A stretch of 11,863 nt of DNA from positions 1 through 11,863 of the forward strand of contig JBKJLC010000054.1 in assembly GCA_046597055.1 (NCBI GenBank), read 5' to 3'. Position 1 is the stretch's first letter. Every line of letters begins with the position of its first letter. The translations under genes were made by a program, and so were the position numbers. Shown here one piece after another: positions 1-11,860 of the stretch. The notes under the pieces were generated by a model, which worked only from the letters and a program-made list of their open reading frames with translations, was not told where the DNA came from and searched no databases. This DNA comes from Kofleriaceae bacterium (lineage in GTDB: Bacteria > Myxococcota_A > Polyangia > Haliangiales > Haliangiaceae).

Positions 1-2970
1 GCGACATCCTCGCGCGCGATCGGCGGGTCGTTGACGGCGGTGACGGCGACGGTGACGGTGGCGGTGGCGGTGGCGCCGTTGCCGTCGGCGATCGTGTACG
101 TGAAGGCCACGGTGCCGTTCGCATCGGCGGCGGGCTGGAAGCTCAGGCCGGCGCCGGTGAGGGTGACCGTACCGGTGGTCGGCTGGGTCACCGCGGTGAT
201 GGTGAGGCCATCGCCGTCGCGGTCGGTGTCGTTGGCGAGCACGTCGATCGCGGTCGCGGCGGCGTCCTCGGCCACCGTCGCGACGTCCTCGTTCGCGGTC
301 GGGGCATCGTTGACCGGCGTGACGACGACCGTCACGGTGGCGGTGGCGGTGCCGCCGTTGCCGTCGTCGATCGTGTACGTGAACGCCACGGTGCCGGTCG
401 CGTCGGCGGCGGGCTGGAAGCTCACGCCGGCGCCGGTGAGGGTGGCCGTGCCGGCGGCCGGCTGGGTCACCGCGATGATGGTGAGGACATCGCCGTCGCG
501 GTCGGCGTCGTTGCCGAGCACGTCGATCGCGGTCGCGGCGGCGTCCTCGGCGAGCGTCGTGGCGTCGTCGCGGGCGGTCGGCACGTCATTGACCGGCGTG
601 ATGACGACCGTGACGGTGGCGGTCGCGGTCGCGCCGGTGCCGTCGCCGATGCTGTACGTGAACGTGACGGTGCCGGTGGCGTCGGGCGCCGGCCGGAAGG
701 TCAGGCCGCTGCCGGTCACGACGACCGTGCCGCGCGCCGGCTGGTTGACCGCCGTGATGGCCAGGGGATCGCCGTCGACGTCGCGGTCGTTGGCGAGCAC
801 GTCGATCGCGATCGGGTCCGCGTCCTCGGCCACCGTGGCGGCGTCGTCGAGCGCGACCGGCGCATCGCGCACGGCGGTGACCGTGATCGTCGCCAGGGCG
901 GTGGCAGTGCCGCCGTTGCCGTCGCTGATCGTGTAGGCGAAGGTCATGGCGCCGGAGGCGTCGGCCGCCGGCTGGAAGCTCACGCCGGTGCCACCGCCGG
1001 TGATGACCACCGTGCCGTCGACCGGCTGGGTGACCGCGGTGATGGTCAGGACATCGCCGTCGCGGTCGGCGTCGTTCGCGAGCACCGCGATCGCCGTCGC
1101 CGCGGCGTCCTCGGTGACCGTGGCGACGTCGTCGCTCGCGGTCGGCTGATCGTTGACCGGTGACACGGTGACCGCGATCGTGGCGGTGTCGGTCAGGCCG
1201 GTGCCGTCATCGATCGTGTACGTGAAGGTCTCGATCCCGGAGGCATCGGCCGCGGGCCGGAAGCTCACGCCGGTGCCACCGCCGGTGATGACGACCGTGC
1301 CGCGGGCCGGCGCGGTCACCGCGGTGACGACCACCGGATCGCCGTCGACGTCGCGGTCGTTGGCGAGCACGTCGATCGCGGTGGCGTCGGCATCCTCGGC
1401 GACGGTGACGGCGTCGTCGGCTGCGGTCGGGGCGTCGGCGACCGGCGTGACCGTCACGGTGACGGTGGCGGTGGCGGTGCCGCCGTTGCCATCACTGATC
1501 GTGTAGGTGAACGCGTCAGCGCCGGTGGCGTTGGCCGCCGGCTGGAAGCTGAGGCCGGTGCCGCCACCGGTGATGACCACGGTGCCGCGGACCGGCGGGG
1601 TCACCGCGGCGACCGCGAGGACCTCGCCGGCGTCGGGCCCGGTCGAGTCGTTGGCGAGCACGGCGATCGCGGTGGCGGGCGCGTCCTCGGCGACCGTGAG
1701 GACCTCCCCGTTCGCGATCGGGAGATCGTTGACCGAGGTGACGGTGACGGCCACCGTGGCGGTCCGGGTCGTGCCGGTGCCATCATTGATCGTGTAGCTG
1801 AACGAGGTGACCCCGTGGAAGTCGGGGGCCGGCTGGAAGGTCAGGCCGGCGCCCGCGCCGGTGATGGTCACGGCGCCGCTGGCCGGCTGGGTGACCGCGG
1901 TGATGGTCAGCACGTCGCCGTCGACGTCGAGGTCGTTCGCGCGCACGTCGATCGCCGTCGCGGCGGCGTCCTCCGCCACCGTGACCAGGTCATCGCGCGC
2001 GATCGGCGGGTCGTTGACCGGCGTGACCGTCACCGTGACGGTCCCGATGGCGGTGCCGCCGCGACCATCGCTGATCGTGTACGTGAACGGGATGACCCCG
2101 TTGGCGTCGGCCGCGGGCTGGAAGGTGAGGCCGGTGCCGCCGCCGGTGATGACGACGGTGCCGTTGGTCGGCTGGGTGACCGCGATGATCGTGATCGTCT
2201 CGCCGGTCTCCGGGGCGGTCGAGTCGTTCGCGCGCACGTCGATCGCCCGCGGCGCCGCGTCCTCGGCGATGGTCACCGCGTCGGGGTTGGCGGTCGGCGG
2301 ATCGTTGACCGGCAGCACGGTGATCGCGATCGTGTCGGAGTCGGAGCGAGCGCCGCCCGAGCCGGAGTTGGCGCGATCGTTCGTGGTCATCGCGAGCGCG
2401 GCGTTGCCGGCGAAGTTCGGGCTCGGCGTGAACGTCACGGTCGGCAGCGCCGCGTTGAGCTGCCCGATCGGGCCGGTGAACACCAGCACCGGGTCGGACG
2501 TGCCGTCGCCGACGCTGAACATCAGCCCGGCGGTCCGGATGGAGACGCGGCCGTTGGTCGCCGCCAGCGTGATCTGCACGGCGGCACCCCCGGCATCGAC
2601 GTCGGCGGTCGACAGGCCCGCGAGCTCGAGGGTGGTGTCCTCGTTGATGGTCTGCGGTCCCGGGACGGTGTTGACCGGGGCGTCGTTGACCGCGGTGACG
2701 ACGATCGACACCGTCGCCGGGCTCGACGCCTGGGTCGCGTTCGCGGCGCGGTAGGTGAAGCTGTCGGTGCCGGCAAAGTTGCTGGCCGGCGTGTACGTGT
2801 ACGAACCGTCGCTCTCGAGCACGACCGAGCCGCTGGTGGGGCCGCTGGCAAGCACCGCGGTCAGCGTCGCCGCGTGCGGGTCGGTGTCGTTGGCCAGCAC
2901 CCCGGGTGCGGCGGTGATCAGCGCGGTGTCCTCGGCGATCCGGCCGGTGTCCGCGGTCGCGATCGGCGGT
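1..2970 (-). repeat. Coding tandem repeat array: 10 complete Ig-like units plus the start of an 11th
   Basis: Unit-start Val codons (V[N/A/R]DxP) at 2309, 2018, 1733, 1442, 1157, 872, 593, 314 and 35 give periods of 291, 285, 291, 285, 285, 279, 279, 279 bp. Shared motifs are AEDAxAxAIDVLAND, VTQPxxGTV and FTYTIxDGNGGTATATV. Two divergent units precede them at ~2310-2970. Confidence 0.9.
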
Positions 2971-3113
2971 GCGTGCGCCGCGGCGCCCTCGCGATGCACC
3001 GCGGTGTCGGCGAGGTCGGCAGGCGCTGGCGCGATCGCGCCCGGATCAGGCGCGTCGCTCGAGCATGCAGCGACGAGGAACGCGAGCGTCACAACGCGCA
3101 TGGACAGGCTCAT
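1..3113 (-). CDS. Large Ig-like (tandem-95/Big_9/cadherin-like) repeat surface lipoprotein, partial (3' end beyond window); paralog of 3338-10246
   Basis: Not in the ORF track because it has no stop in the window; translated by hand. ATG at 3113 with GGAGA just upstream. Begins MSLSMRVVTLAFLVAAC-SSDAPDP (lipobox, Cys17). Same frame is kept at every repeat start checked down to position 3 (...VNDPPIAREDV), >1037 codons. Alternative in-frame ATG at 3101. Confidence 0.93.
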   Translation of the reverse strand, partial: MSLSMRVVTLAFLVAACSSDAPDPGAIAPAPADLADTAVHREGAAAHAPPIATADTGRIAEDTALITAAPGVLANDTDPHAATLTAVLASGPTSGSVVLESDGSYTYTPASNFAGTDSFTYRAANATQASSPATVSIVVTAVNDAPVNTVPGPQTINEDTTLELAGLSTADVDAGGAAVQITLAATNGRVSIRTAGLMFSVGDGTSDPVLVFTGPIGQLNAALPTVTFTPSPNFAGNAALAMTTNDRANSGSGGARSDSDTIAITVLPVNDPPTANPDAVTIAEDAAPRAIDVRANDSTAPETGETITIIAVTQPTNGTVVITGGGTGLTFQPAADANGVIPFTYTISDGRGGTAIGTVTVTVTPVNDPPIARDDLVTVAEDAAATAIDVRANDLDVDGDVLTITAVTQPASGAVTITGAGAGLTFQPAPDFHGVTSFSYTINDGTGTTRTATVAVTVTSVNDLPIANGEVLTVAEDAPATAIAVLANDSTGPDAGEVLAVAAVTPPVRGTVVITGGGTGLSFQPAANATGADAFTYTISDGNGGTATATVTVTVTPVADAPTAADDAVTVAEDADATAIDVLANDRDVDGDPVVVTAVTAPARGTVVITGGGTGVSFRPAADASGIETFTYTIDDGTGLTDTATIAVTVSPVNDQPTASDDVATVTEDAAATAIAVLANDADRDGDVLTITAVTQPVDGTVVITGGGTGVSFQPAADASGAMTFAYTISDGNGGTATALATITVTAVRDAPVALDDAATVAEDADPIAIDVLANDRDVDGDPLAITAVNQPARGTVVVTGSGLTFRPAPDATGTVTFTYSIGDGTGATATATVTVVITPVNDVPTARDDATTLAEDAAATAIDVLGNDADRDGDVLTIIAVTQPAAGTATLTGAGVSFQPAADATGTVAFTYTIDDGNGGTATATVTVVVTPVNDAPTANEDVATVAEDAAATAIDVLANDTDRDGDGLTITAVTQPTTGTVTLTGAGLSFQPAADANGTVAFTYTIADGNGATATATVTVAVTAVNDPPIAREDV

Positions 3114-3136
3114 CGATCGTTCTCCGCGGCGACCCT

Positions 3137-3160
3137 GCGCTTCCACCAGAGAAGTCAGCA
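3137..3160 (-). promoter_or_regulatory. Conserved upstream motif, copy 1 (minus strand TGCTGACTTCTCTGGTGGAAGCGC)
   Basis: 21/24 identical to 10273-10296; lies 23 nt upstream of the ATG at 3113; contains a CTTC-N7-GAAG dyad. Function is inferred. Confidence 0.55.
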
Positions 3161-3208
3161 AGCCACCGCCGGCGGACATTATCCGGCCGCGGCGTGTCCC
3201 GGAACACC

Positions 3209-3224
3209 TGCGAATTTATTCGCA
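3209..3224. promoter_or_regulatory. Perfect inverted repeat TGCGAAT-TT-ATTCGCA, candidate transcription factor operator
   Basis: 7-2-7 dyad with an AT-rich core in very GC-rich DNA, ~100 nt upstream of the ATG at 3113. Confidence 0.45.
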
Positions 3225-3337
3225 TGCGCCAGGTCGGCACACCTGGCTCCAGGCCGGCGTTCTGGATCACATGAGCATCGTTTCCGGTTCGCCGGCGCGC
3301 AACCGAAGTCACAGCCGTGCGAGTCGGCGCTGCTCGG

Positions 3338-6300
3338 TCATTTCTCCTTGGTGTCCTCGCCGGCGCCCTGCTGCTTGTTCTCGATCGTCGTTCCGGCCTC
3401 GCCGAGCAGCTTGAACACCACCCGGCGGTTCTGCGCGCGGCCGGTCTTGGTCGTGTTCTCGGCGACCGGCTGGTCCTCGCCGTAGCCGACCGCGGTGAGC
3501 CGATCCGCGGGGACCTGCTTCTTCATCAAGTACGCGCGCACCGCGTCGGCGCGGCGCTGGGACAGCTGCTTGTTGTGGGTGGCGTTGCCCTGGTCGTCGG
3601 TGTGGCCCTGGATCTCGACGCGCAGCGCGCCGTGGGCCAGCAGCACCGTCGCCACGTTGTCGAGCAGCTTGTACGAGCGCGGCAAGATGACCGCCTTGTC
3701 GAGCGCGAAGTAGATGCTCTCGAGGATCTCGAGGCTCGTGCCGGTGAGCGTGACCAGCTGCTTGGTCTTGCAGCCCGAGTGCGCCTGGGGGCCCGGCTCG
3801 TCCGGGCAGGCGTCGAGGCGATCGACCACGGTGTCCTGGTCGCGGTCCGGATCGGGGCAGCCCCGGGTCTCGCTCGGACCCGGCTGGGCCGGACAGGTGT
3901 CGTCGGCGTCGACCAGGCCGTCCTGGTCGTTGTCGAGGTCGGGGCAGCCGTCGGTGTCCTCGAAGCTGTCGACGTCCTCGGCCACGGCCGGGCAGGTGTC
4001 GACATGATCGGCGATGGTGTCGCCGTCGGTGTCCTGGGCCGGGCAGCCGTCGAGCTCGGCGAGGCCGGGCGCCGCGCGGCAGGTATCGGCGCCGTCGAGC
4101 ACGCCGTCCTGATCGTCGTCGGGATCCGGGCACCCGTCCTGGTCGCTGAAGCCGTCGGCGTCCTCGGGCTCGAGCGGACAGCGGTCGCGCCGGTCGAGCC
4201 GGCCGTCACCATCGCGATCGAGCTCGGCCACCACCCGGTTCACCGGCTGGTCGGGGCTGCCGAGGCGGAGCCCGGCGAGCGCGCGCCAGTCGGGCGTGCC
4301 GTAGCCCTCGCGCAGGCCGCGACCGGTGGCCGCGAACAGGATCGCGGTGCGCCCGATGCGGAGGTTGGCGCCGGCCAGCGCTTCGAGCGCGTCCTGGTTG
4401 AACGTCTCGAACGGGTGGGCGGCCGCGATCGCGCCGGTGATCGTGAGATCGATCCCGACCGGCGGGCCGCCGCGGTCGGCGAAGCGATAGCCGACGCCGG
4501 CGCGGGCGAACACCTCGTCGTCGACGACGAGGTTGAGGAGCCGGGCCTGCTTGCGGGCGTGGTAGCCGGCGTTGATCGCCAGCCGCCAGCCAGTCCAGCT
4601 GCGCGAGGCCACGACCTCGGGCGCGAAGCCCACGCCGGCGTCGCCGAGGTAGTCCGAGTCCGAGCTCTTGGTCGGGAAGCTCACCGCCGGGATGACCGCG
4701 AGCCCGACGCCGTGGCGATCCTGGCTCAGCACGGTCAGCTTGGGGCTCAGCTGCAGATCGCCGACGCCGAAGCTCGACAGCGACTCGAGGTTCATCGCGC
4801 CGCCGGCGGTGGTGGTCCGGTCCTGCGCGAGCACCAGCGGGAGGTGGAACCCCAGGGTCAGCCAGCGCGTCGGCGCCAGCGAGCCGGCCAGCGCGGCCGC
4901 GGTGCGGTTCTGGACCAGCGCGCCGATCCGCTCGCGATCGCCCGCCATCTCCGTGTAGACGACCAGCGGATCGTTGGCGTAGCCGACCCACATCGCCAGG
5001 TCGAAGGCCATGCCGCCGCGACCCTCGGCCCACTCGACCCCGAGCAGGCCCTCGCGATCGCTCGCGAGCTGGAAGCGCTCGACCGAGAAGTTGCGCGGCT
5101 CGCTCGCGACCTGGGCGGCGGCGAGCGAGGGCGCGGTCACCACCGCGGCCAGCGCGACCACCACGGCCGCGTGGCGTCGGCGCCGGCGCCGGGTCAGCAC
5201 CGACAGCGCGAGGCCGAGCGCGACCAGCCCCCCGCCGTCGCCGCCGGTGGAGCAGCCGCCGCCGGACACGCCGACGTTGTCGCCGAAGCCGTCGCCATCG
5301 GCGTCGGGGTCGCAGGCGTCGCCCAGCGGATCGCGGTCGACGTTGACCTGCTCGGTGTTGGCGACGGTCGGACAGTTGTCGTCGGCGTCGGGCACGCCGT
5401 CGCGGTCGGCGTCGTCCGGGATCGGCGCGTCGTCGGTCGGATCGTTGGGATCGTGCTCGCCCTCGTCGACCTGGCCGTCGTGGTCGGCGTCCTCGGTGCC
5501 ATCGGTGATGCCGCCGCCGTCGGTGTCGGGATCCAGCGGGTCGGTGGTCGTGGTCGGATCGGCGTCGGGGACGAAGTGACCCGCGCTGACGTCGGTGTCG
5601 GGGTGGGCGGTGGTCACGCCCAGCTCGGTGCCGTCCTTGAGGCCGTCGTTGTCGCTGTCGGGATCGAGCGCGTCGATGGCGCCGTCGCCGTCGCTGTCCG
5701 CGCCGGGCATCGGCTCGAGGCCATCGAGCACGCCGTCGTCGTCGGAGTCGGCGTCGAACGGGTCGGTGCCGATCGCGAGCTCCTCGGAGTCGGTGAGTCC
5801 GTCCTCGTCGCTGTCGAGGCCGACCGTGACCATGACGATCGTGGTCGAGGTCTCGCCGTCGACGTCGGTCACCGTGTACTCGAAGGTGTCGGCGCCACGG
5901 TAGTCGGCGGTCGGCGTGTACGTGATCGTGCCATCGGCGTTGACGACCACCGTGCCGTGCGCTGGCGTGGTGGCGGTGGTCGTGATCGGGCCATCCCCGA
6001 GGCCGAGGTCGTTGCCGCGCACGTCGATCACCACGCTGGCGCCGGGGTCGACTCCCGCGAAGTCGGGCATCGCGATCGGCGTGTCATTCACCGGCGCGAC
6101 CGTGACCGTGACGGTCGCGGTGGCGGTGCCGCCGTTGCCGTCGCTGACCGTGTACGTGAACGTCACGACCCCGTGGAAGTTGGCGGGCGGCAGGTAGGTC
6201 AGGCCGGTGCCGCCACCGGTGATGACGACCGTGCCGCTGGCCGGCTGGGTCACGGTGGTGATGCGGAGCGGACCGCCGTCGACGTCGCGGTCGTTGCCGA

Positions 6301-9300
6301 GCACGTCGAGCGCGGTCGCGGCGGCGTCCTCGGCCAGCGCGATGGCATCGTCGATCGCGACCGGCGGGTCGTTGACCGGGGTGATGGTGACCGTGACCGA
6401 AGCGGTGGCGGTGCCGCCGTTGCCGTCGCTGATCGTGTAGTTGAACATCACGACGCCGGTGACGTCGGCGGCGGGCTCGAAGGTCAGGCCGGTGCCGTCG
6501 CCGGTGATGACGACGGTGCCGCTGGCCGGCTGGGTGACGCTGGTGATCCGCAGCGCGTCGCCGTCGACATCGCTGTCGGTGGCGAGCACGTCGATCGCGG
6601 TGGCGGGCGCATCCTCCGCCACCGTGATGGCGTCGTCGGTGGCGACCGGCGGGTCGTTGACCTCGGCGACGGTGATCGTGACGGTCGCGGTGGCGGTGCC
6701 GCCGTTGCCATCGCTGATCGTGTACGTGAAGGTCACGACGCCGTGGAAGTTGGCGGGCGGCTGGTAGGCCAGGCCGGTGCCGCCGCCGGTGATGGTGACG
6801 GTGCCGTCGGTCGGCTGGACCACGGCGGTGACCTGCAGCAGGTCGCCATCGACGTCGCGATCGTTGCCGAGCACGTCGATCACGGTGGCGATCGCATCCT
6901 CGGCCACGGTGGCGGCGTCGTCGATCGCGACCGGCGGGTCGTTGACCGCCGTCACGGTGATCGTGACGGTCGCGGTCGCGGTGCCACCCTCGGGGTCCCG
7001 GATGGTGTAGGTGAACGTGACGACCCCGGTCGCGTTGGCCGCCGGCTGGAAGGTCAGGCCGGTGCCGCCACCGCTGATGACCACGGTGCCATTCACTGGC
7101 TGGGTCACCGCGGTGATCTGCAGCGGACCGCCCTCGACGTCACGGTCGTTGCCGAGCACGTCGAGCGGGGTCGCATCCGCGTCCTCCGGCAGCGTGGCGG
7201 TGTCGTCGACGGCGACCGGCGGGTCGTTCACGGCGAGCACGGTCACGGTGACGGTCGCGGTATCGGTCCCGCCGTGGCCGTCACTGATCGTGTAGGTGAA
7301 CGTGATGGGGCCGCTGGCGTTGGCTGCGGGCTCGACGGTCAGCCCGGTGCCGCCGCCGGTGATGACGACCGTGCCGTTGGCCGGCTGGGTCGCCGCGGTG
7401 ATGGTGAGCGCATCGCGGTCGGGGTCGCGGTCGTTGCCGAGCACGTCGATCGGGGTGGCGATCGCGTCCTCGTTCACGGTGGCGGTGTCGTCGGTCGCGA
7501 CCGGCGGGTCGTTGACTGGCGTCACGGTGATCGTGACGGTGGCGGTCGCGGTGCCGCCGTCTCCGTCGCTGATCGTGTACGTGAAGATAATGACGCCGTT
7601 GGCGTCGGCGTCCGGCTGGAAGGTCAGACCGGTGCCCCCGCCGGTGATGACGACGGTGCCATTCGCCGGCTGGGTGACGGCGGTGATCGTCAGCGAGGCG
7701 CTGTCGAGGTCGCCGTCGTTGCCGAGCACGTTGATCGGGAGGGCGCCGGCGTCCTCGGCCACGGTGGCGGTGTCGTCGACCGCGACCGGCGGGTCGTTGA
7801 CGGGCGTCACCGTGACGTTGACGGTAGCGGTGGCGGTGCCGCCGTTGCCGTCGCTGATCGTGTAGGTGAACGTCACCAGGCCGCTAGCGTTGGCGGCCGG
7901 CTGGTAGGTCAGGCCGGTACCGGCGCCGGTGATGACGACGGTGCCATTGTCGGGCTGGGTCACGGCGGTGATCGTCAACGCGTCGCCGTCGGCGTCGCTG
8001 TCGTTGGCGAGCACGGCGATCGCAGTGGCGACCGCGTCCTCGGCCAGGGTGCCGGTGTCGTCGAGCGCGACCGGCGGGTCGTTGCTGCCGGTCACGGTGA
8101 CGGTGACCGTCGCGGTGGCGGTGCCGCCGTTGCCGTCGCTGACCGTGTAGGTGAACGTCACCAGGCCGCTGGCATTGGCGGCCGGCTGGAAGGTCAGGCC
8201 GGTGCCGCCGCCGGTGATGACCACTGTGCCCGCGCCGCCGGCCGGCTGGGTCACGGTGGTGATCGTGAGGGTCTCGCCGGCGTCGGGTGCGGCCGTGTCG
8301 TTGCCGAGCACGTTCACCGCGGTCGGCCCCGAGTCCTCGGCCACGGTGGCGGCGTCGTTGACGGCCGTGGGCGGATCGTTGACCGGCGTGACGGTCACGG
8401 TGACCGTCGCGGTGGCGGTGCCGCCGTTACCGTCGCTGACCGTGTACGTGAACGTCACGACCCCGCTGGTGTTGGCCGCCGGCTGGAAGGTCAGGCCGGT
8501 GCCGCCGCCGGTGATGACGACCGTGCCCGCGCTGCCGGCCGGCTGGGTCACGCTGGTGATGGTGAGGGTCTCGCCGGTGTCGGGCGCGATCGAGTCGTTG
8601 GTCAGCACGCTGATCGGGGTCGCGGCCGCGTCCTCGGCCACGGTGGCGCTGTCGTTGTTCGCGACCGGCGGATCGTTGACCGGCGTCACCGTGATCGCGA
8701 TCGAATCGACGTCGGTCCGCGCACCGCCGGCGCCGGTGTTGCCCTGGTCGCTGGTCGTGATCGTGATCGAGGCCGCGCCGCTGACGTTCGCGGTCGGCGC
8801 GAAGCTCAGGCTGGCCAGCGCGGTGTTGATGCTGGCGATCGTGCCGGTGAAGGTCATGGTCGTGTCCAACGTGCCGTCGCCGGTGCTGAACAGCAGGCCG
8901 CCGGTCCCGATCGTGATGCTGCCGCCGGTCGCCGCCAGCGTGACCTGCATGGTGGCGCCGCCGGCATCGACGTCCGCGATCGACACGCCGGTGATGGCCC
9001 GGCTGGTGTCCTCCGGGGTGGTCTGGGCTCCCGGCACGGTGTTGACCGGCGGGTCGTTCACCGGCGCGACCACGATCGTGACGGTCGCCGGCGTCGACAG
9101 CGACGTCGCGTTCTGCGCGCGATAGGTGAAGGTGTCGGTGCCGCTGAAGTTGGCGTTCGGCGTGTAGGTGAAGGACCCGTTGCTGTTGAGCGTGAGGGCG
9201 CCGTTGGTCGGCCCGGTGGCGAGCACGGCGGTGAGCGCGCCGCCCGACGGATCGGTGTCGTTGGCCAGGACGCCGGCCGCGGCCACGGTCAGCGCCGTGT

Positions 9301-10246
9301 CCTCGTTCGTGTTGTAGCTATCGTTGTTCGCGATCGGTGCCGCGCCCGAGGTGACCGTGAGCGCGAGGCTGCCGAAGTTGGAGTTGTAGTGATAGCTCGC
9401 GCCCGAGAAGTCGTAGATGATGCCGGTCAGGCTGAAGGTGCCGGCCCCGACCACCCGGACGGTGTAGGTGACCTGGACGTCGCCGCCGGCCTTGCCGCCG
9501 GCGAACTGGACCGGGCCGATGCAGGCGCGATAGGTGGGGCTGGTCGGCAGGTTGTCCCAGCCGCAGGCATCCGCGTAGACCTTGTCGTTGGTGGCGTTCG
9601 GTGGCGCGGTGTAGGTCGATGCGGTCGACAGCACCTGGAAGCCCGCGCTCGCGACGGTCAGGGCCGCCTCGAGCTGCTCGTAGCCGCCGGTCGCGGTCTT
9701 GGCGACCATCACGTACTGGACGACGTCGCCGATGCTCACGGAGGTGGGCCCGGTGATCGACACCGTCAGGTTGCGGTTCTGCGAGACCAGCGACTCGACG
9801 AAGATCTCGCGAGGCGTCGGCGAGGTCGCGGTCGTGAAGCCGGTGCCGGCCACCGTGACCACGTAGGACCGACGGGTGCCGTACGCCGCGCTGTTGCGGG
9901 TCACCCGGATGTTGAAGTAGGCGTCGACCGACGCGCCGGGGGCCAGCGATGCGAACGACACGACGCCGGGCCCGTCGAGGTTGATGAGGGCGTTGGCGGT
10001 GGTAAACGCGAAGCCCGCGGTCAGGCTGGTGGCCGCGGTGTCGCCGGTGTTGGTGATGCGCACGCCGACCGGGAACGTGTCCGGACCGACCGTGACGTTG
10101 TTGCTGTCGAGGCCCACGATGTTCCAGGTGATCGGCGCGACCGAGATCACCGCGAGCGACTGCTCGGTCTGGGCGAGCTGGGGCGGGTCACTCGCGCAGG
10201 CGGCGACCACGAGTGCAAGGGCGGCAATGCGCGTGAGCGTGCTCAT
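3338..10246 (-). CDS. Giant surface adhesin-like lipoprotein fused through an internal MYXO-CTERM-like tag to an OmpA-family (beta-barrel + TSP3 + OmpA_C) module; 2302 aa
   Basis: Start moved from 10363 to the ATG at 10246 (M40 of the track ORF). This gives the lipoprotein signal MSTLTRIAALALVVAAC-ASD (Cys17), has a G-rich RBS-like run upstream, and aligns with the paralog's start. Contains 12 Ig-like units, DxDxDG repeats, GGGC-TM-RRRRRR, and a C-terminal OmpA signature (GHTD..G....N..LS.RRA.AV..YL, GYGE..P, NRRV.F). Confidence 0.95.
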   Translation of the reverse strand: MSTLTRIAALALVVAACASDPPQLAQTEQSLAVISVAPITWNIVGLDSNNVTVGPDTFPVGVRITNTGDTAATSLTAGFAFTTANALINLDGPGVVSFASLAPGASVDAYFNIRVTRNSAAYGTRRSYVVTVAGTGFTTATSPTPREIFVESLVSQNRNLTVSITGPTSVSIGDVVQYVMVAKTATGGYEQLEAALTVASAGFQVLSTASTYTAPPNATNDKVYADACGWDNLPTSPTYRACIGPVQFAGGKAGGDVQVTYTVRVVGAGTFSLTGIIYDFSGASYHYNSNFGSLALTVTSGAAPIANNDSYNTNEDTALTVAAAGVLANDTDPSGGALTAVLATGPTNGALTLNSNGSFTYTPNANFSGTDTFTYRAQNATSLSTPATVTIVVAPVNDPPVNTVPGAQTTPEDTSRAITGVSIADVDAGGATMQVTLAATGGSITIGTGGLLFSTGDGTLDTTMTFTGTIASINTALASLSFAPTANVSGAASITITTSDQGNTGAGGARTDVDSIAITVTPVNDPPVANNDSATVAEDAAATPISVLTNDSIAPDTGETLTITSVTQPAGSAGTVVITGGGTGLTFQPAANTSGVVTFTYTVSDGNGGTATATVTVTVTPVNDPPTAVNDAATVAEDSGPTAVNVLGNDTAAPDAGETLTITTVTQPAGGAGTVVITGGGTGLTFQPAANASGLVTFTYTVSDGNGGTATATVTVTVTGSNDPPVALDDTGTLAEDAVATAIAVLANDSDADGDALTITAVTQPDNGTVVITGAGTGLTYQPAANASGLVTFTYTISDGNGGTATATVNVTVTPVNDPPVAVDDTATVAEDAGALPINVLGNDGDLDSASLTITAVTQPANGTVVITGGGTGLTFQPDADANGVIIFTYTISDGDGGTATATVTITVTPVNDPPVATDDTATVNEDAIATPIDVLGNDRDPDRDALTITAATQPANGTVVITGGGTGLTVEPAANASGPITFTYTISDGHGGTDTATVTVTVLAVNDPPVAVDDTATLPEDADATPLDVLGNDRDVEGGPLQITAVTQPVNGTVVISGGGTGLTFQPAANATGVVTFTYTIRDPEGGTATATVTITVTAVNDPPVAIDDAATVAEDAIATVIDVLGNDRDVDGDLLQVTAVVQPTDGTVTITGGGTGLAYQPPANFHGVVTFTYTISDGNGGTATATVTITVAEVNDPPVATDDAITVAEDAPATAIDVLATDSDVDGDALRITSVTQPASGTVVITGDGTGLTFEPAADVTGVVMFNYTISDGNGGTATASVTVTITPVNDPPVAIDDAIALAEDAAATALDVLGNDRDVDGGPLRITTVTQPASGTVVITGGGTGLTYLPPANFHGVVTFTYTVSDGNGGTATATVTVTVAPVNDTPIAMPDFAGVDPGASVVIDVRGNDLGLGDGPITTTATTPAHGTVVVNADGTITYTPTADYRGADTFEYTVTDVDGETSTTIVMVTVGLDSDEDGLTDSEELAIGTDPFDADSDDDGVLDGLEPMPGADSDGDGAIDALDPDSDNDGLKDGTELGVTTAHPDTDVSAGHFVPDADPTTTTDPLDPDTDGGGITDGTEDADHDGQVDEGEHDPNDPTDDAPIPDDADRDGVPDADDNCPTVANTEQVNVDRDPLGDACDPDADGDGFGDNVGVSGGGCSTGGDGGGLVALGLALSVLTRRRRRRHAAVVVALAAVVTAPSLAAAQVASEPRNFSVERFQLASDREGLLGVEWAEGRGGMAFDLAMWVGYANDPLVVYTEMAGDRERIGALVQNRTAAALAGSLAPTRWLTLGFHLPLVLAQDRTTTAGGAMNLESLSSFGVGDLQLSPKLTVLSQDRHGVGLAVIPAVSFPTKSSDSDYLGDAGVGFAPEVVASRSWTGWRLAINAGYHARKQARLLNLVVDDEVFARAGVGYRFADRGGPPVGIDLTITGAIAAAHPFETFNQDALEALAGANLRIGRTAILFAATGRGLREGYGTPDWRALAGLRLGSPDQPVNRVVAELDRDGDGRLDRRDRCPLEPEDADGFSDQDGCPDPDDDQDGVLDGADTCRAAPGLAELDGCPAQDTDGDTIADHVDTCPAVAEDVDSFEDTDGCPDLDNDQDGLVDADDTCPAQPGPSETRGCPDPDRDQDTVVDRLDACPDEPGPQAHSGCKTKQLVTLTGTSLEILESIYFALDKAVILPRSYKLLDNVATVLLAHGALRVEIQGHTDDQGNATHNKQLSQRRADAVRAYLMKKQVPADRLTAVGYGEDQPVAENTTKTGRAQNRRVVFKLLGEAGTTIENKQQGAGEDTKEK
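3410..3730 (-). other. OmpA/MotB-type C-terminal peptidoglycan-binding domain (within 3338-10246)
   Basis: IYFALDKAVI...VEIQGHTDDQGNATHNKQLSQRRADAVRAYL...AVGYGEDQPVAENTTKTGRAQNRRVVF matches the canonical OmpA_C motifs. Boundaries approximate. Confidence 0.93.
3770..4219 (-). repeat. Five thrombospondin type 3-like Ca-binding repeats (10 Cys)
   Basis: Five units of DxDxD[G/T]xxDxxDxC...GC[P/K] between the predicted barrel and the OmpA domain. Confidence 0.85.
4259..5113 (-). other. Predicted outer-membrane beta-barrel domain (~285 aa)
   Basis: Amphipathic alternating strands (FDLAMWVGYANDPL, WLTLGFHLP, GVGDLQLSPKLTVL, WRLAINAGYHAR, VFARAGVGYRF, GYGTPDWRALAGLRLG). The position before TSP3 + OmpA matches myxobacterial OmpA-family/TraB-like proteins. 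Fold is inferred, not computed. Confidence 0.72.
5114..5191 (-). other. Internal signal-peptide-like segment (RRRRRR-HAAVVVALAAVVTAPSLAAA|QV)
   Basis: Basic n-region, hydrophobic h-region, Pro at -6 and A-A-A at -3..-1 before Gln1712, the classical signal peptidase I pattern, but ~1690 aa into the ORF. Confidence 0.7.
5174..5263 (-). other. Internal MYXO-CTERM-like sorting motif (GGGCSTGGDGGGLVALGLALSVLTRRRRRR)
   Basis: GGGC signature (Cys1665, codon 5252-5254), Gly/Ser spacer, hydrophobic helix and Arg6 cluster (5174-5191), the tripartite layout of MYXO-CTERM tags. No stop codon follows. Confidence 0.8.
5276..5815 (-). repeat. Asp-rich DxDxDG Ca-binding (bacterial TSP3-like) region
   Basis: DSDEDGLTDSEE..GTDP, DSDDDGVLDG, DSDGDGAID, DSDNDGLKDG, DTDGGGITDG, DADHDG, DADRDGVPDADDNCP...GDACD, DADGDG. 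Confidence 0.85.
5820..9340 (-). repeat. Coding tandem array of 12 Ig-like (tandem-95/Big_9/cadherin-like) units
   Basis: Units begin [V/S]ND[P/T]P. Seven consecutive units have a 285-bp (95-aa) period, also visible in the 285/570-bp spacing of shadow-ORF stops at 6440, 7010, 7295, 7865 and 8150. Units 3-4 are slightly longer, unit 2 is a longer cadherin-like type, and units 1 and 12 are divergent. Confidence 0.92.
9350..10150 (-). other. Non-repetitive N-terminal beta-rich domain(s), putative ligand-binding tip (~267 aa)
   Basis: First half resembles CARDB/DUF11-like Ig folds (PVGVRITNTGDTAAT...SLAPGASVDAYF). Second half has two Cys (YADACGW...RACIG) and many aromatics. Absent from the paralog. 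Function is inferred. Confidence 0.55.
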
Positions 10247-10657: not shown

Positions 10658-10981
10658 TCAGGCGCGCGCCGCGACCACCCCGGCCGGCGCGCGCGATGCG
10701 ACCAGCCCGCGGTGGACCAGGTAGGCCAGCGCGCTGATCGAGCCGAGGAACAGGAGCCCGAGCAGGTACGGCGTCGCCGGCAGCCCGCGCTGGCGAGCGT
10801 CGCGGACCATCCAGATGCTGAACAGGAAGCACGCGATCGCCACATCGAGGAGGAGCTGGAGCCCCCACGGCTCGCGCCCGGCCAGCCCGAGGAAGCCGAA
10901 GTAGCCCTGGTCGAGGGCCACCCACATCGAGAACGTGGTGAAGAGGATCAGGACGACGAGCGGGAGGGCGATGCGCTTCAT
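10658..10981 (-). CDS. Small integral membrane protein, DUF2834-like (107 aa)
   Basis: Start trimmed from 11368 to the ATG at 10981 (GGTGG upstream). MKRIALPLVVLILFTTFSMWVAL...WGLQLLLDVAIACFLFSIWMVRDARQRGLP..PYLLGLLFLGSISALAYL gives ~3-4 hydrophobic segments. The D..I...W...DAR..G pattern resembles DUF2834 from recall, not from a search. Confidence 0.8.
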   Translation of the reverse strand: MKRIALPLVVLILFTTFSMWVALDQGYFGFLGLAGREPWGLQLLLDVAIACFLFSIWMVRDARQRGLPATPYLLGLLFLGSISALAYLVHRGLVASRAPAGVVAARA

Positions 10982-11013
10982 GGCACCACCGTGCGCGTCC
11001 GTCGGCGGCCCCG

Positions 11014-11034
11014 CCATTACCTCCCAGGTAATGG
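11014..11034. promoter_or_regulatory. Perfect palindrome CCATTACCT-CCC-AGGTAATGG, probable operator of the adjacent XRE/MmyB-type regulator
   Basis: 9-3-9 inverted repeat centred in the 84-bp divergent intergenic region, 32 nt from one ATG and 31 nt from the other. Confidence 0.75.
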
Positions 11035-11065
11035 GCGCGCCGCGCCGACGCGATACCTTGGCGTC

Positions 11066-11860
11066 ATGCAATCTGCCGGGGTCGGTCTCCTGCTGCGGGC
11101 GTGGCGGGGTGCGCGCGGCGTGAGCCAGGAGGACCTGGCCGCCCGCGCCGGGGTCTCGACCCGTCATCTCAGCTTCATCGAGACCGGCCGCTCGCGCCCG
11201 GGCCGCGAGGTCCTGCTCGCGATCGCCGGCGCGCTCGACGTGCCGCTGCGCGATCGCAACCAGCTGCTGCTCGCCGCCGGGCTGGCCCCGGCCTACGGCG
11301 CGTCGGCGCTCGACGGCGACGAGCTGGCGATGGTCCGTCGCGCGCTCGATCACGTGCTGGCGCACCACGAGCCGTACCCGGCGATCGTGGTCGATCGGCT
11401 GTGGAACCTGGTGCGCATCAACGCCGGCGCCGCCCGGCTGTTCGCCGGCTTCGGCCCGCCATCACCCCCGGCCGACGTCGGTCAGAACCTGGTGCTCGCG
11501 CTGCTTCACCCCCAGGGGTGGAAGCCGGCGCTGGTCAACTGGGACGAGGTCGCCGGCGCGATGATCGAGCGGCTGCACCGCGAGGTCGCGGCCGCGCCCC
11601 GCGACCCGGGGCTGGCCGAGCTACGGACCCGCGCGCTGGCCATGCCCGGGGTGCCGGCGCACTGGCGCGCGTCGGCGCTCGGCCCGACCACGCCGTTCGC
11701 GAGCGTCCACCTGCGCCGCGATGGCCGCGAGCTGCGCCTGTTCACGATGATCACCACGCTCGGCACCCCGCTCGACGTCACCGCCGAGGAGCTACGGATC
11801 GAGAGCTACTTCCCGGCCGACGACGCCAGCGAGCGGCTGCTGCGCGAGGGTGTCTCGTGA
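11066..11860 (+). CDS. XRE-family helix-turn-helix transcriptional regulator with MmyB-like (MLTR) ligand-binding domain (264 aa)
   Basis: Start trimmed from 10712 to the ATG at 11066. N-terminal HTH: GLLLRAWRGARGVSQEDLAARAGVSTRHLSFIETGRSRP...LDVPLRDRNQLLLAAG. C-terminal motifs HEPYPAIVVDRLWN, NWDEVA and LFTMITTLGTPLDVTAEELRIESYFPAD are typical of this family. TGA at 11858-11860. Confidence 0.92.
   Translation: MQSAGVGLLLRAWRGARGVSQEDLAARAGVSTRHLSFIETGRSRPGREVLLAIAGALDVPLRDRNQLLLAAGLAPAYGASALDGDELAMVRRALDHVLAHHEPYPAIVVDRLWNLVRINAGAARLFAGFGPPSPPADVGQNLVLALLHPQGWKPALVNWDEVAGAMIERLHREVAAAPRDPGLAELRTRALAMPGVPAHWRASALGPTTPFASVHLRRDGRELRLFTMITTLGTPLDVTAEELRIESYFPADDASERLLREGVS

Follow-up and report, generated by a model that had tools for sequence, protein, structure and literature searches.

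A large myxobacterial adhesin joined to a TraB-like barrel protein through an internal MYXO-CTERM tag and a predicted second signal peptide

A large adhesin and an outer membrane barrel protein are encoded in a single open reading frame, P0001, of a soil myxobacterium, a Kofleriaceae bacterium; the join is genuine and widespread, and the chain is therefore probably cleaved in the cell to give two proteins that act as partners. The gene lies in an 11,863-nucleotide stretch of contig JBKJLC010000054.1 (the window), to which all positions refer. We favor as the probable explanation that a TraA/TraB-like pair is made as one precursor, which myxosortase and signal peptidase I then cleave. The preliminary description had left unclear whether such an architecture was already reported; it is in print for MXAN_5598, presented in the Discussion of Guo, Haft and Wall (mBio 2025, PMC11980579) as an adhesin region, an internal MYXO-CTERM, an outer membrane barrel, and an OmpA domain. 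The layout and the myxosortase cut were thus already proposed in 2025; the second signal peptide, the breadth of the family, and a candidate docking strand are added here.

P0001 runs from an ATG at 10246 to a stop at 3338 on the minus strand (3338..10246) and encodes 2302 amino acids, with GGGC beginning at aa 1662 (nt 5263), Q1712 at nt 5113-5111, and 591 aa thereafter, coordinates that reproduce those first reported for this DNA. GC3 was 0.91-0.98 per 100 codons over the ORF and 0.91-1.0 throughout the gene, junction included, and because it stays high through the junction the frame can be taken as coding; by the ORF list and GC3, long plus-strand ORFs over the gene were rejected as shadow frames, explained by the GC richness of the coding strand. 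The two junction segments are the most hydrophobic internal 15-mers of the entire protein (2.30 and 1.86), and the N-terminal signal, at 2.16, is the sole 15-mer comparable to them. Continuity of the junction, also claimed at the outset, was judged on assembled contigs rather than raw reads: contigs of run X1, which may be the source run, span 3937-5673 with 0 gaps, and those of run X3, from the same study, span 4521-6136 with 0 gaps and four differing letters, three of which fall in the junction (one is silent, and the others give A>V and V>G). The counter-sign comes from run X5, whose contigs, at a depth of 3.8-4.3, carry single-base insertions at 5094, 5226, 5229, and 5231; these are flagged as possible errors, and the contigs may come from other organisms. 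Since gap-free contigs of two runs cross the junction and the same junction occurs in Haliangium ochraceum (P0118, on a 9.4-Mb record), we do not regard it as an artifact. Downstream on the same strand (3..3113), a paralogous adhesin with a lipobox-like signal and tandem-95 repeats (NF012211), 64% identical over 999 aa to the P0001 repeat stalk, runs off the contig end, its C terminus falling outside the window; it is a possible second client of the P0001 barrel. The other neighbors are a small membrane gene and an HTH/MmyB regulator.

The internal MYXO-CTERM tag (aa 1662-1691; 5174..5263, minus strand) combines the invariant cysteine motif, GGG-Cys1665 (nt 5252-5254), with a glycine linker, a hydrophobic helix at aa 1674-1685, and a basic cluster, Arg 1686-1691. 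As the preliminary description had predicted, the MYXO-CTERM model recognizes it: on two fragments, TIGR03901.2 scored 23.0 and 25.2 bits (cutoff, 20) and TIGR03382 scored 22.8 and 25.2 bits (cutoff, 15.85), the TIGR03901 match having come from fragments and being absent among the 25 of 49 families listed for whole P0001. The HMM match is followed by 611 aa, which places the tag outside the position that defines TIGR03901 tags. In the same genome, where 150 of 271 candidates were scored, 37 tags exceeded the cutoff; 35 of these end no more than 23 aa before a stop, and the only internal ones are in P0001 and in a protein on contig C81. When the 35 terminal tags were read 30 codons further, none of the 35 yielded a signal-like stretch, so that an internal tag followed by a second signal exceeds chance. 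Alongside its many tags the genome encodes a myxosortase (Mrt_core, 100.8 bits against a cutoff of 100, on a 96-aa fragment), three GspD secretins of the type II secretion system, and one signal peptidase I, in line with the processing proposed at the outset. Cleavage by myxosortase at the cysteine has been demonstrated in print just for TraA and MXAN_4924, according to the main text of PMC11980579; for the internal cysteine of P0001 we infer it.

A predicted second signal peptide (aa 1686-1711; 5114..5191, minus strand) begins with the Arg6 run that it shares with the tag (nt 5174-5191), continues through an uncharged hydrophobic region, and ends in P-S-L-A-A-A, with a predicted signal peptidase I site, A-A-A|Q, before Q1712. 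Its basic n-region, uncharged h-region, and small residues at -3 and -1 are conserved in relatives. By a home-made and partly compositional rule, a signal peptide was present in 109 of 112 long-frame relatives versus 9% of 3800 passenger windows, and the motif [ASV]-x-A-Q was present in 100 of 112 (mean of 20.7 and maximum of 33 in shuffled tails; 0.6% of passenger windows), in support of the second signal peptide proposed earlier. Hydrophobicity alone is a weak test, because the rule is also satisfied by half of the shuffled tails (56/112), and the residues at -1 and +1 are circular, because site picking favored A|Q/D/E; alanine at -3 (92/112) and proline at -6 (55/112) were also frequent in the long-frame relatives. 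Signal segments of fused and stand-alone forms resemble each other in site (107/112 versus 14/14) and best-9 hydropathy (2.67 versus 2.58), and the offset from the segment to the barrel is identical, with equal register. The second segment is short or weakly hydrophobic in a few relatives; 3 of 112, and 1 of 65 in a second set described below, fail the signal rule, and the Gln motif is missing in 12 of 112 and 12 of 65. Taken together, the motif and its register point to a signal peptidase I cut before Q1712.

Beyond this site lies a predicted outer membrane β-barrel with an N-terminal plug-like segment (aa 1712-1996; 4259..5113, minus strand), identified by AlphaFold2, Foldseek, the TraB model, and PF13557. 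The AlphaFold2 model has a mean pLDDT of 86.6 and 12 long strands, its Foldseek matches include FapF (5o67; E = 1.7e-10) and a COG4313 channel (4rl8; E = 9.5e-8), and the barrel matches TraB model positions 20-211 with an E value of 3.5e-12. Periplasmic TSP3 repeats follow at aa 2010-2160, approximately (3767..4219; PF02412, above the cutoff on the C-terminal module), and then an OmpA-family peptidoglycan-binding domain at aa 2179-2274 (3425..3712; PF00691, E = 1.1e-23). The description of this half as an OmpA protein therefore held for its terminal domain but not for a plain OmpA porin; the module is TraB-like, with a FapF/COG4313-like barrel, TSP3 repeats, and an OmpA C-terminal domain. Just 35 residues separate Q1712 from the first barrel strand, and because this linker is short and is predicted to be mostly folded (pLDDT, about 95), it is hard to see how the barrel would get to the outer membrane without a cut.

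The adhesin half opens with a signal peptide (aa 1-17; 10196..10246) whose V-A-A-C17 end, typed by eye, looks like that of a lipoprotein; a loose lipobox pattern, run without a control, occurred in 46 of 68 Met-starting relatives, and the adhesin may therefore carry lipid at both ends. Distal domains at aa 27-302 (9341..10168) resemble DUF11/CARDB-like immunoglobulin folds, a lead provided by ESM Atlas features (0.90-0.92; DUF11/CARDB clusters), with Pfam CARDB at just E = 0.18 and no NCBIfam match over this region. A stalk of 11-12 tandem-95/Big_9/cadherin-like repeats follows at approximately aa 303-1480 (5807..9340; 12 stretches by NF012211, 11 by PF17963, 11 by PF17892, and 12 by PF17803), and Asp-rich TSP3-type repeats precede the tag (aa 1478-1657; 5276..5815; PF18884 and PF02412), a region that also gave a sub-cutoff match to NF047638 MtsC. 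Between these repeats and the tag glycines lies a conserved hydrophobic strand, V-G-V-S (aa 1658-1661; 5264..5275, minus strand, like all these features), which is a new element of this analysis. Its pattern was found in 91 of 112 fused relatives versus 5 among the 36 other tags that this genome encodes, position alone (hydrophobic at Cys-5) separating them more weakly (74/112 versus 8/35), and the segment was modeled as a strand (E9-12; pLDDT, about 70). We regard it as a candidate barrel-docking element.

Searches yielded 136 non-redundant barrel relatives, of which 112, P0001 included, have an open frame of at least 120 codons before the barrel. Most searches used tag-bearing queries, which biases them toward fused matches, and the relatives are not independent of one another. 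The Cys-helix-basic rule held in all 112 (110 in a stricter form) and in none of 2760 passenger windows; in a second, non-overlapping set of 65, the tag was present in 65, the signal rule held in 64, and [ASV]-x-A-Q was present in 53 (shuffled mean, 12.2; maximum, 24). With a barrel-only query, the tag was found on 13 of 14 long-frame matches; a tagless long-frame match, P0103, with AraC/AlkA-type sequence upstream, was dropped at de-duplication. Passenger domains vary widely by their Pfam matches, and the junction is constant. Split versions occur as well, as had been anticipated: L039 carries the tag together with one in-frame TGA, a Shine-Dalgarno sequence, and an ATG exactly at the place of the junction, and in L014 and L022 a tag-ending frame lies at most 600 nt upstream. 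Relatives G262 and G147 each contain one stop inside the match. On the barrel tree fused and stand-alone forms are interleaved, with 11 changes, at least 4 of them forced by strong branches. NF047640 searches (18/121, 12/301, and 6/126 genomes) and six regions inspected yielded only adhesins whose tags are terminal, and in two of these a barrel/OmpA gene lies directly upstream. No Myxococcus-named protein was among the best 120 of 572 matches in the profile search.

In the reading that we favor, Sec would export the N-terminal part by way of the first signal, the MYXO-CTERM helix would stop transfer with the Arg run left in the cytoplasm, and the next hydrophobic stretch would re-insert as a signal peptide, so that, judging by this anatomy, the junction would form an inner membrane hairpin. 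The second signal peptide would export the last 591 aa, and signal peptidase I would cut after A1711, as conservation suggests, to give a Gln-starting protein that would fold into the outer membrane as the predicted barrel, its OmpA domain gripping peptidoglycan. Cys1665 would be lipidated, myxosortase would cut behind it, and the type II secretion system would deliver the adhesin to the surface, a sequence of events shown for TraA in Myxococcus xanthus and presumed for P0001. The products would probably rejoin 1:1 at the outer membrane, where, in the way suggested for TraA-TraB, the barrel-OmpA protein would anchor the adhesin on the cell wall, and a hairpin of roughly 46 residues would remain in the inner membrane. 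That the pre-Cys strand may be the contact between adhesin and barrel is the weakest step.

It is unlikely that signal peptidase I alone acts, freeing the barrel while myxosortase lies idle on the internal tag, hindered by the second helix, so that the adhesin either stays fixed in the inner membrane through the hairpin or departs with the helix attached. Such a single cut would satisfy the geometric need of the barrel, the adhesin may own an N-terminal lipid anchor, and in M. xanthus some TraA still arrives at the surface when MrtX is missing (PMC11980579, Discussion); however, the tag cysteine does not vary in alignment A4 (23 rows) and hardly varies in A1 (37 rows), cases of mid-protein sorting tags that work are cited in the same paper (refs 45 and 46), and one N-terminal peptide of MXAN_5598 (residues 741-755 of 2699), a single peptide and from that protein rather than P0001, was recovered in all three of the three vesicle samples (supplement of PMC4158809). 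We consider it very improbable that the second site stays uncut, giving a trans-envelope protein with its hairpin in the inner and its barrel in the outer membrane, or an uncleaved signal anchor: cleavage there is so far deduced, and a few relatives have the weak second segments noted above, but the conserved Ala at -3 and Pro at -6 and the short, folded linker to the barrel argue for a cut.

We judge it improbable that the barrel is instead made mostly by internal initiation close to the Arg run, such as at a GTG at V1683, the long chain being a read-through fusion processed only at the tag. Some ATG, GTG, or TTG lies in the loop of 25 of 34 fused loci, and split relatives such as L039 begin at the junction. 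Nevertheless, in agreement with the earlier expectation, a start with a Shine-Dalgarno sequence was found at the junction in 0 of 34 fused loci versus 5 of 8 stand-alone loci; terminal tags (5/35) and fused relatives (22/112) have a Met close to the basic run at similar frequencies; no start preceded by a Shine-Dalgarno-like sequence was seen in P0001; no promoter-like site was seen in 2900-5600, a weak test in a GC-rich genome; and useless read-through would be expected to regain a stop. A neutral, recurrent loss of stops between overlapping operon genes, with processing as proposed, 1:1 co-synthesis without a role, and products that do not interact, shares the first four steps of the favored mechanism, where its weight is partly counted, and as a separate account has little probability. 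It would fit the alternation of fused and split states on the barrel tree, the radical-SAM-like gene that intervenes between adhesin and barrel genes on contig C193 of the same genome, and the barrel genes that lie upstream of the adhesin in L065 and L068. Yet tags linked to a barrel have the pre-Cys strand more often than other tags do, and the adhesin-barrel pairing is kept in either gene order, and for these reasons we propose a functional link. As for an assembly or sequencing artifact joining two genes, the source is a metagenome-assembled genome and the X5 insertions lie near the junction, but gap-free contigs of X1 and X3 bridge it and it recurs in 177 non-redundant sequences (112 + 65), H. 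ochraceum among them; this recurrence refutes an artifact for the family, and for P0001 the chance is negligible.

If both of the cuts that we favor are real, a C-terminal sorting tag routinely works mid-protein across a whole phylum, hundreds of database "OmpA family proteins" are two proteins each, and the fusions reveal the surface partners of TraB-like barrels, a group whose role is unclear even for TraB. More tentatively, and with less than even confidence, we suggest that a general "tag-hairpin-signal" cassette builds envelope polyproteins in Myxococcota by means of two membrane proteases, TraB-like barrels serving as docking stations for pre-Cys strands; the barrel may bind the strand, hold the adhesin at the surface or help to flip it, and tie it to the wall. 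In the C81 family the same cassette would also link a lipoprotein to a tagged protein. Were this broader idea true, it would supply a binding code for TraB-type barrels and explain TraA-TraB pairing, with processing akin to that of viral or eukaryotic secretory polyproteins; bacterial polyproteins cut for two envelope destinations are seldom described. Cultured carriers are H. ochraceum (P0118) and probably M. xanthus (MXAN_5598), for which a myxosortase deletion is published.

Among known systems, FbcH of Bradyrhizobium japonicum is a precursor of cytochrome b and cytochrome c1 that is cut at an internal signal sequence; unlike those proposed for P0001, its products are inner membrane proteins, released by a single cut and without a sorting tag. 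FapF and the COG4313 channel are the best structural matches of the barrel (target TM score, 0.63-0.71), but they share 12-15% identity with it and have neither a TSP3/OmpA tail nor a fused passenger, and transport through the P0001 barrel is not implied. The likeness to TraA/TraB is closer, consisting of a MYXO-CTERM surface protein followed by a signal peptide, barrel, TSP3 repeats, and OmpA domain, the architecture of TraB; TraA and TraB are two genes, overlapping by 4 bases in M. xanthus (PMC3325183), whereas P0001 is one. In TraA, MrtX cleavage falls at the Cys (main text of PMC11980579), and the TraA:TraB complex is 1:1 (PMC12045341). Membership in TraB itself was rejected (NF033763; 227 bits for the C-terminal module against a cutoff of 700), as was membership in TraA, since neither PA14 nor the Cys-rich repeat of TraA appears in the 13 Pfam families or the 25 of 49 NCBIfam families listed, and there is no reason to regard P0001 as an outer membrane exchange system. 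AgmC was likewise rejected, the sole match of the genome to NF047640 (cutoff, 275) being on another contig, C206, at 266 bits. Neither a second signal peptide nor an interpretation as polyproteins was found for MYXO-CTERM proteins in the literature searched, subscription papers lying mostly outside that search, and the published MXAN_5598 peptide pattern was found in 0 of 401 genomes. By description, P0001 is nevertheless of the same type as MXAN_5598, with adhesin, internal MYXO-CTERM, barrel, and OmpA domain in one ORF. The two differ in that a second signal peptide and signal peptidase cut are predicted for P0001 and none is named for MXAN_5598 in the main text of PMC11980579, and in that MXAN_5598 adjoins ftsA/ftsZ, which is not a defining rule, whereas P0001 adjoins a paralogous adhesin and a regulator. 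Internal tags are called rare in that main text, where the myxosortase cut alone is proposed, and its authors likened MXAN_5598 to a fused TraA and TraB whose N-terminal part would be processed and anchored at the surface.

The 2302-aa precursor is read on the minus strand from an ATG at 10246 to a stop at 3338; its MYXO-CTERM tag opens with GGGC at aa 1662 (nt 5263), a run of six Arg occupies aa 1686 to 1691, and 591 aa remain from Q1712 (nt 5113). The internal position of the tag, proposed in the preliminary description, was borne out, with the first junction segment exceeding the cutoffs of both the TIGR03901.2 and TIGR03382 HMMs, and no other internal 15-mers of the protein are as hydrophobic as the two junction helices. 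Scoring of 150 of the 271 candidates in the same genome gave 37 tags above the cutoff, 35 of which end no more than 23 aa from the stop; the internal ones are that of the precursor and one on contig C81. GC3 is 0.91 to 1.0 over the full length, including the junction. The claim of an uninterrupted frame also held: gap-free contigs span the junction in sequencing runs X1, possibly the source run, and X3, from the same study but a slightly different strain, and the four single-base insertions near the junction in contigs of run X5 are of low depth and were marked by the tool as possible errors. An artifactual origin of the fusion is ruled out, and the junction is real and conserved.

Signal peptides were assessed by our own rule, applied to relatives and controls in place of SignalP. 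The survey took in 114 proteins and 43 loci, giving 156 barrel rows (P0082 and P0083 yielded none) and, after removal of 20 near-copies, 136, of which 112 were long-frame relatives, in which an open frame of 120 codons or more precedes the barrel. A Cys-helix-basic rule held in 112/112 of these (110 in a stricter version) and in 0 of 2760 windows from the passenger, the variable N-terminal adhesin part. The signal peptide rule held in 109 of the 112, compared with 9% of 3800 passenger windows and 0/35 terminal tags extended past their stops, and is partly compositional, since shuffled tails pass it in 56/112 on average. The second signal peptide claimed to follow the Arg run is nevertheless conserved in relatives, as the order-dependent motif [ASV]-x-A-Q occurs in 100/112, against a shuffled mean of 20.7 and maximum of 33 (300 shuffles). 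A second set of 65 new nonredundant sequences, from the best 120 of 572 profile matches, gave the tag in 65/65, the signal rule in 64/65, and the motif in 53/65 (shuffled mean, 12.2; maximum, 24). Most queries contained the tag, which biases these counts towards fused matches; with a barrel-only query, the tag was present in 13 of 14 long-frame matches, the exception being P0103, in which the barrel is joined to an unrelated AraC/AlkA-type sequence. The tagless P0103 has a barrel-OmpA region nearly identical to that of P0058 and may derive from a chimeric contig. Stand-alone barrels start with ordinary signal peptides at the same offset to the barrel as in fused forms, with the signal site in 14/14 and 107/112, respectively, and hydropathies of 2.58 and 2.67; passengers differ among relatives by Pfam comparison while the junction persists. 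Because the motif is conserved and the signals of stand-alone barrels match in offset and hydropathy, we read the fused junction, from sequence, as the export signal that belongs to the barrel itself, maintained by selection downstream of the tag as passengers vary.

Matches to a junction-plus-barrel query occurred in 216 of 301 phylum genomes, stand-alone barrels included. Both of the forms that the preliminary description had wished to see surveyed occur: the best 29 nonself loci comprise 24 fused, 4 stand-alone, and 1 split, the last (L039) having a tag, a single in-frame TGA, a Shine-Dalgarno sequence, and an ATG precisely at the junction position. Twelve of 14 named loci are fused, and P0118 of Haliangium ochraceum (9.4-Mb record) has the same junction as the precursor. 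On a quick barrel tree built from 61 of the 112 fused relatives and 16 stand-alone barrels (77 rows in total; P0095 and P0096 are classed as stand-alone from gene calls only), the states are intermixed, with 11 changes, at least 4 of them forced by strong branches. Contig C193 of the same genome carries a split arrangement (L072:403-7617), in which a 432-aa gene, radical-SAM-like by eye, separates a 1375-aa adhesin with a terminal tag and pre-Cys strand from a barrel/TSP3/OmpA gene that has a separate start. In L065 and L068, a barrel/OmpA gene lies immediately upstream of an AgmC_N adhesin with a terminal tag, an order opposite to that of the fusion. Other relatives (L001 / P0045, P0046, P0086, P0107, and P0113) end approximately 265 to 305 aa past the signal site and are barrel only, without a TSP3/OmpA tail, although some may be partial records.

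The N-terminal signal of the precursor ends, by eye, in a lipobox-like V-A-A-C17; DUF11/CARDB-like domains after it are a lead only, and 11 to 12 tandem-95/Big_9 repeats and then TSP3-type repeats follow. For the region past the second hydrophobic stretch, AlphaFold2 predicts 12 long strands at a mean pLDDT of 86.6, with FapF and the COG4313 channel as nearest structures; this region matches the TraB model in its N-terminal part (E 3.5e-12) and is followed by TSP3 repeats and an OmpA domain. The next gene (3-3113, minus strand) encodes a lipobox-starting adhesin paralogue, truncated by the contig end, with 64% identity to the precursor in the repeat stalk and no DUF11-like tip. A small membrane protein (10715-11101, minus strand; weak DUF2834 match, E 0.03) and a divergent HTH_3 and MmyB-type regulator (11070-11860, plus strand) appear ordinary, with no evident link to the adhesin.

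Alternating hydrophobic residues directly precede the tag glycines in 91/112 fused relatives, which are not independent, versus 5/36 other tags of the same genome, one of these 5 belonging to an adhesin whose gene is followed, two genes downstream, by a barrel gene; under a looser positional test the separation is poorer (74/112 versus 8/35). The stretch is a beta strand at residues 9 to 12 in the monomer model (pLDDT, ~70), and a pairing partner is needed in the model. In the six AgmC_N adhesins compared, the tag glycines are closely preceded, by eye, by an aromatic or aliphatic residue. We hypothesize that this modeled strand is a candidate docking element on the barrel.

The genome encodes a myxosortase core, signal peptidase I, and three T2SS secretins. 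The junction would span the inner membrane as a hairpin that keeps the Arg run in the cytoplasm; signal peptidase I would release the barrel protein, myxosortase would release the lipidated adhesin for export by T2SS, and both products would re-pair at the outer membrane. We consider it probable that the precursor is cut twice, by these two proteases. FbcH provides a precedent for a precursor cut at an internal signal. The signal peptidase I cut would be nearly obligatory because the stretch between Q1712 and the first strand is only 35 residues long and is mostly modeled as folded; a single cut only is unlikely, and a chain that stays uncut is highly improbable. Production of the barrel from an internal start is also quite improbable: a start codon of some kind is present in the loop of 25/34 fused loci, but one with a Shine-Dalgarno sequence occurs in 0/34, against 5/8 stand-alone loci, and Met in the loop is about equally frequent in fused relatives (22/112) and terminal tags (5/35), so that a start at the junction is not favored by sequence. 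For the two-cut reading, TraA has been shown to be cut by MrtX in a Cys-dependent manner (PMC11980579) and to form 1:1 complexes with TraB (PMC12045341), and one peptide of the N-terminal part of MXAN_5598 was detected in 3/3 vesicle samples and one membrane sample (PMC4158809), a thin fit with inner-membrane release.

Internal tags also occur in other fusions. One, a 1346-aa frame at C81:65787-69827 of the same genome (L071 and L074), carries the tag at aa 809; a basic loop then leads into a hydrophobic segment and a P-G-C-S-C that resembles a lipobox. Such fusions match in 37/41 family genomes, stop-free and mostly in 1160- to 1420-aa frames; the tag and lipobox-like segment are kept in all 14 loci displayed, with no conserved Met, making this a candidate tag-plus-lipoprotein polyprotein. 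A second tag, signal, barrel, and OmpA fusion in this genome, at C6:1548-6380 (L073; 1611-aa frame), has a short second hydrophobic segment and is absent among the TIGR03901 matches listed. Tentatively, a general tag-hairpin-signal cassette may build envelope polyproteins in Myxococcota, with TraB-like barrels docking adhesins via the pre-Cys strand.

Guo, Haft, and Wall (PMC11980579) describe the Myxococcus xanthus protein MXAN_5598 as an adhesin with an internal MYXO-CTERM, barrel, and OmpA, compare it to a fusion of TraA with TraB, propose processing of its N-terminal part, and call internal tags rare; their main text does not name a second signal peptide, and the available parts of 10.1101/2023.06.07.544157 and PMC3325183 (traAB) hold nothing further on internal tags. 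No published account of the two-cut reading was found in the literature searched, the coverage of which is incomplete. The precursor adds a case to an architecture that has one earlier mention in the literature; what is new is the phylum-wide conservation of a second signal peptide, which turns a remark on gene fusion into a testable two-protease polyprotein model, together with the strand proposed as a docking element and a sister family in which the tag is joined to a lipoprotein. The last 591 aa of the precursor are TraB-like in build but score 227 against the TraB model, far below its cutoff of 700. MXAN_5598, compared by its published description, shares the architecture of the precursor.
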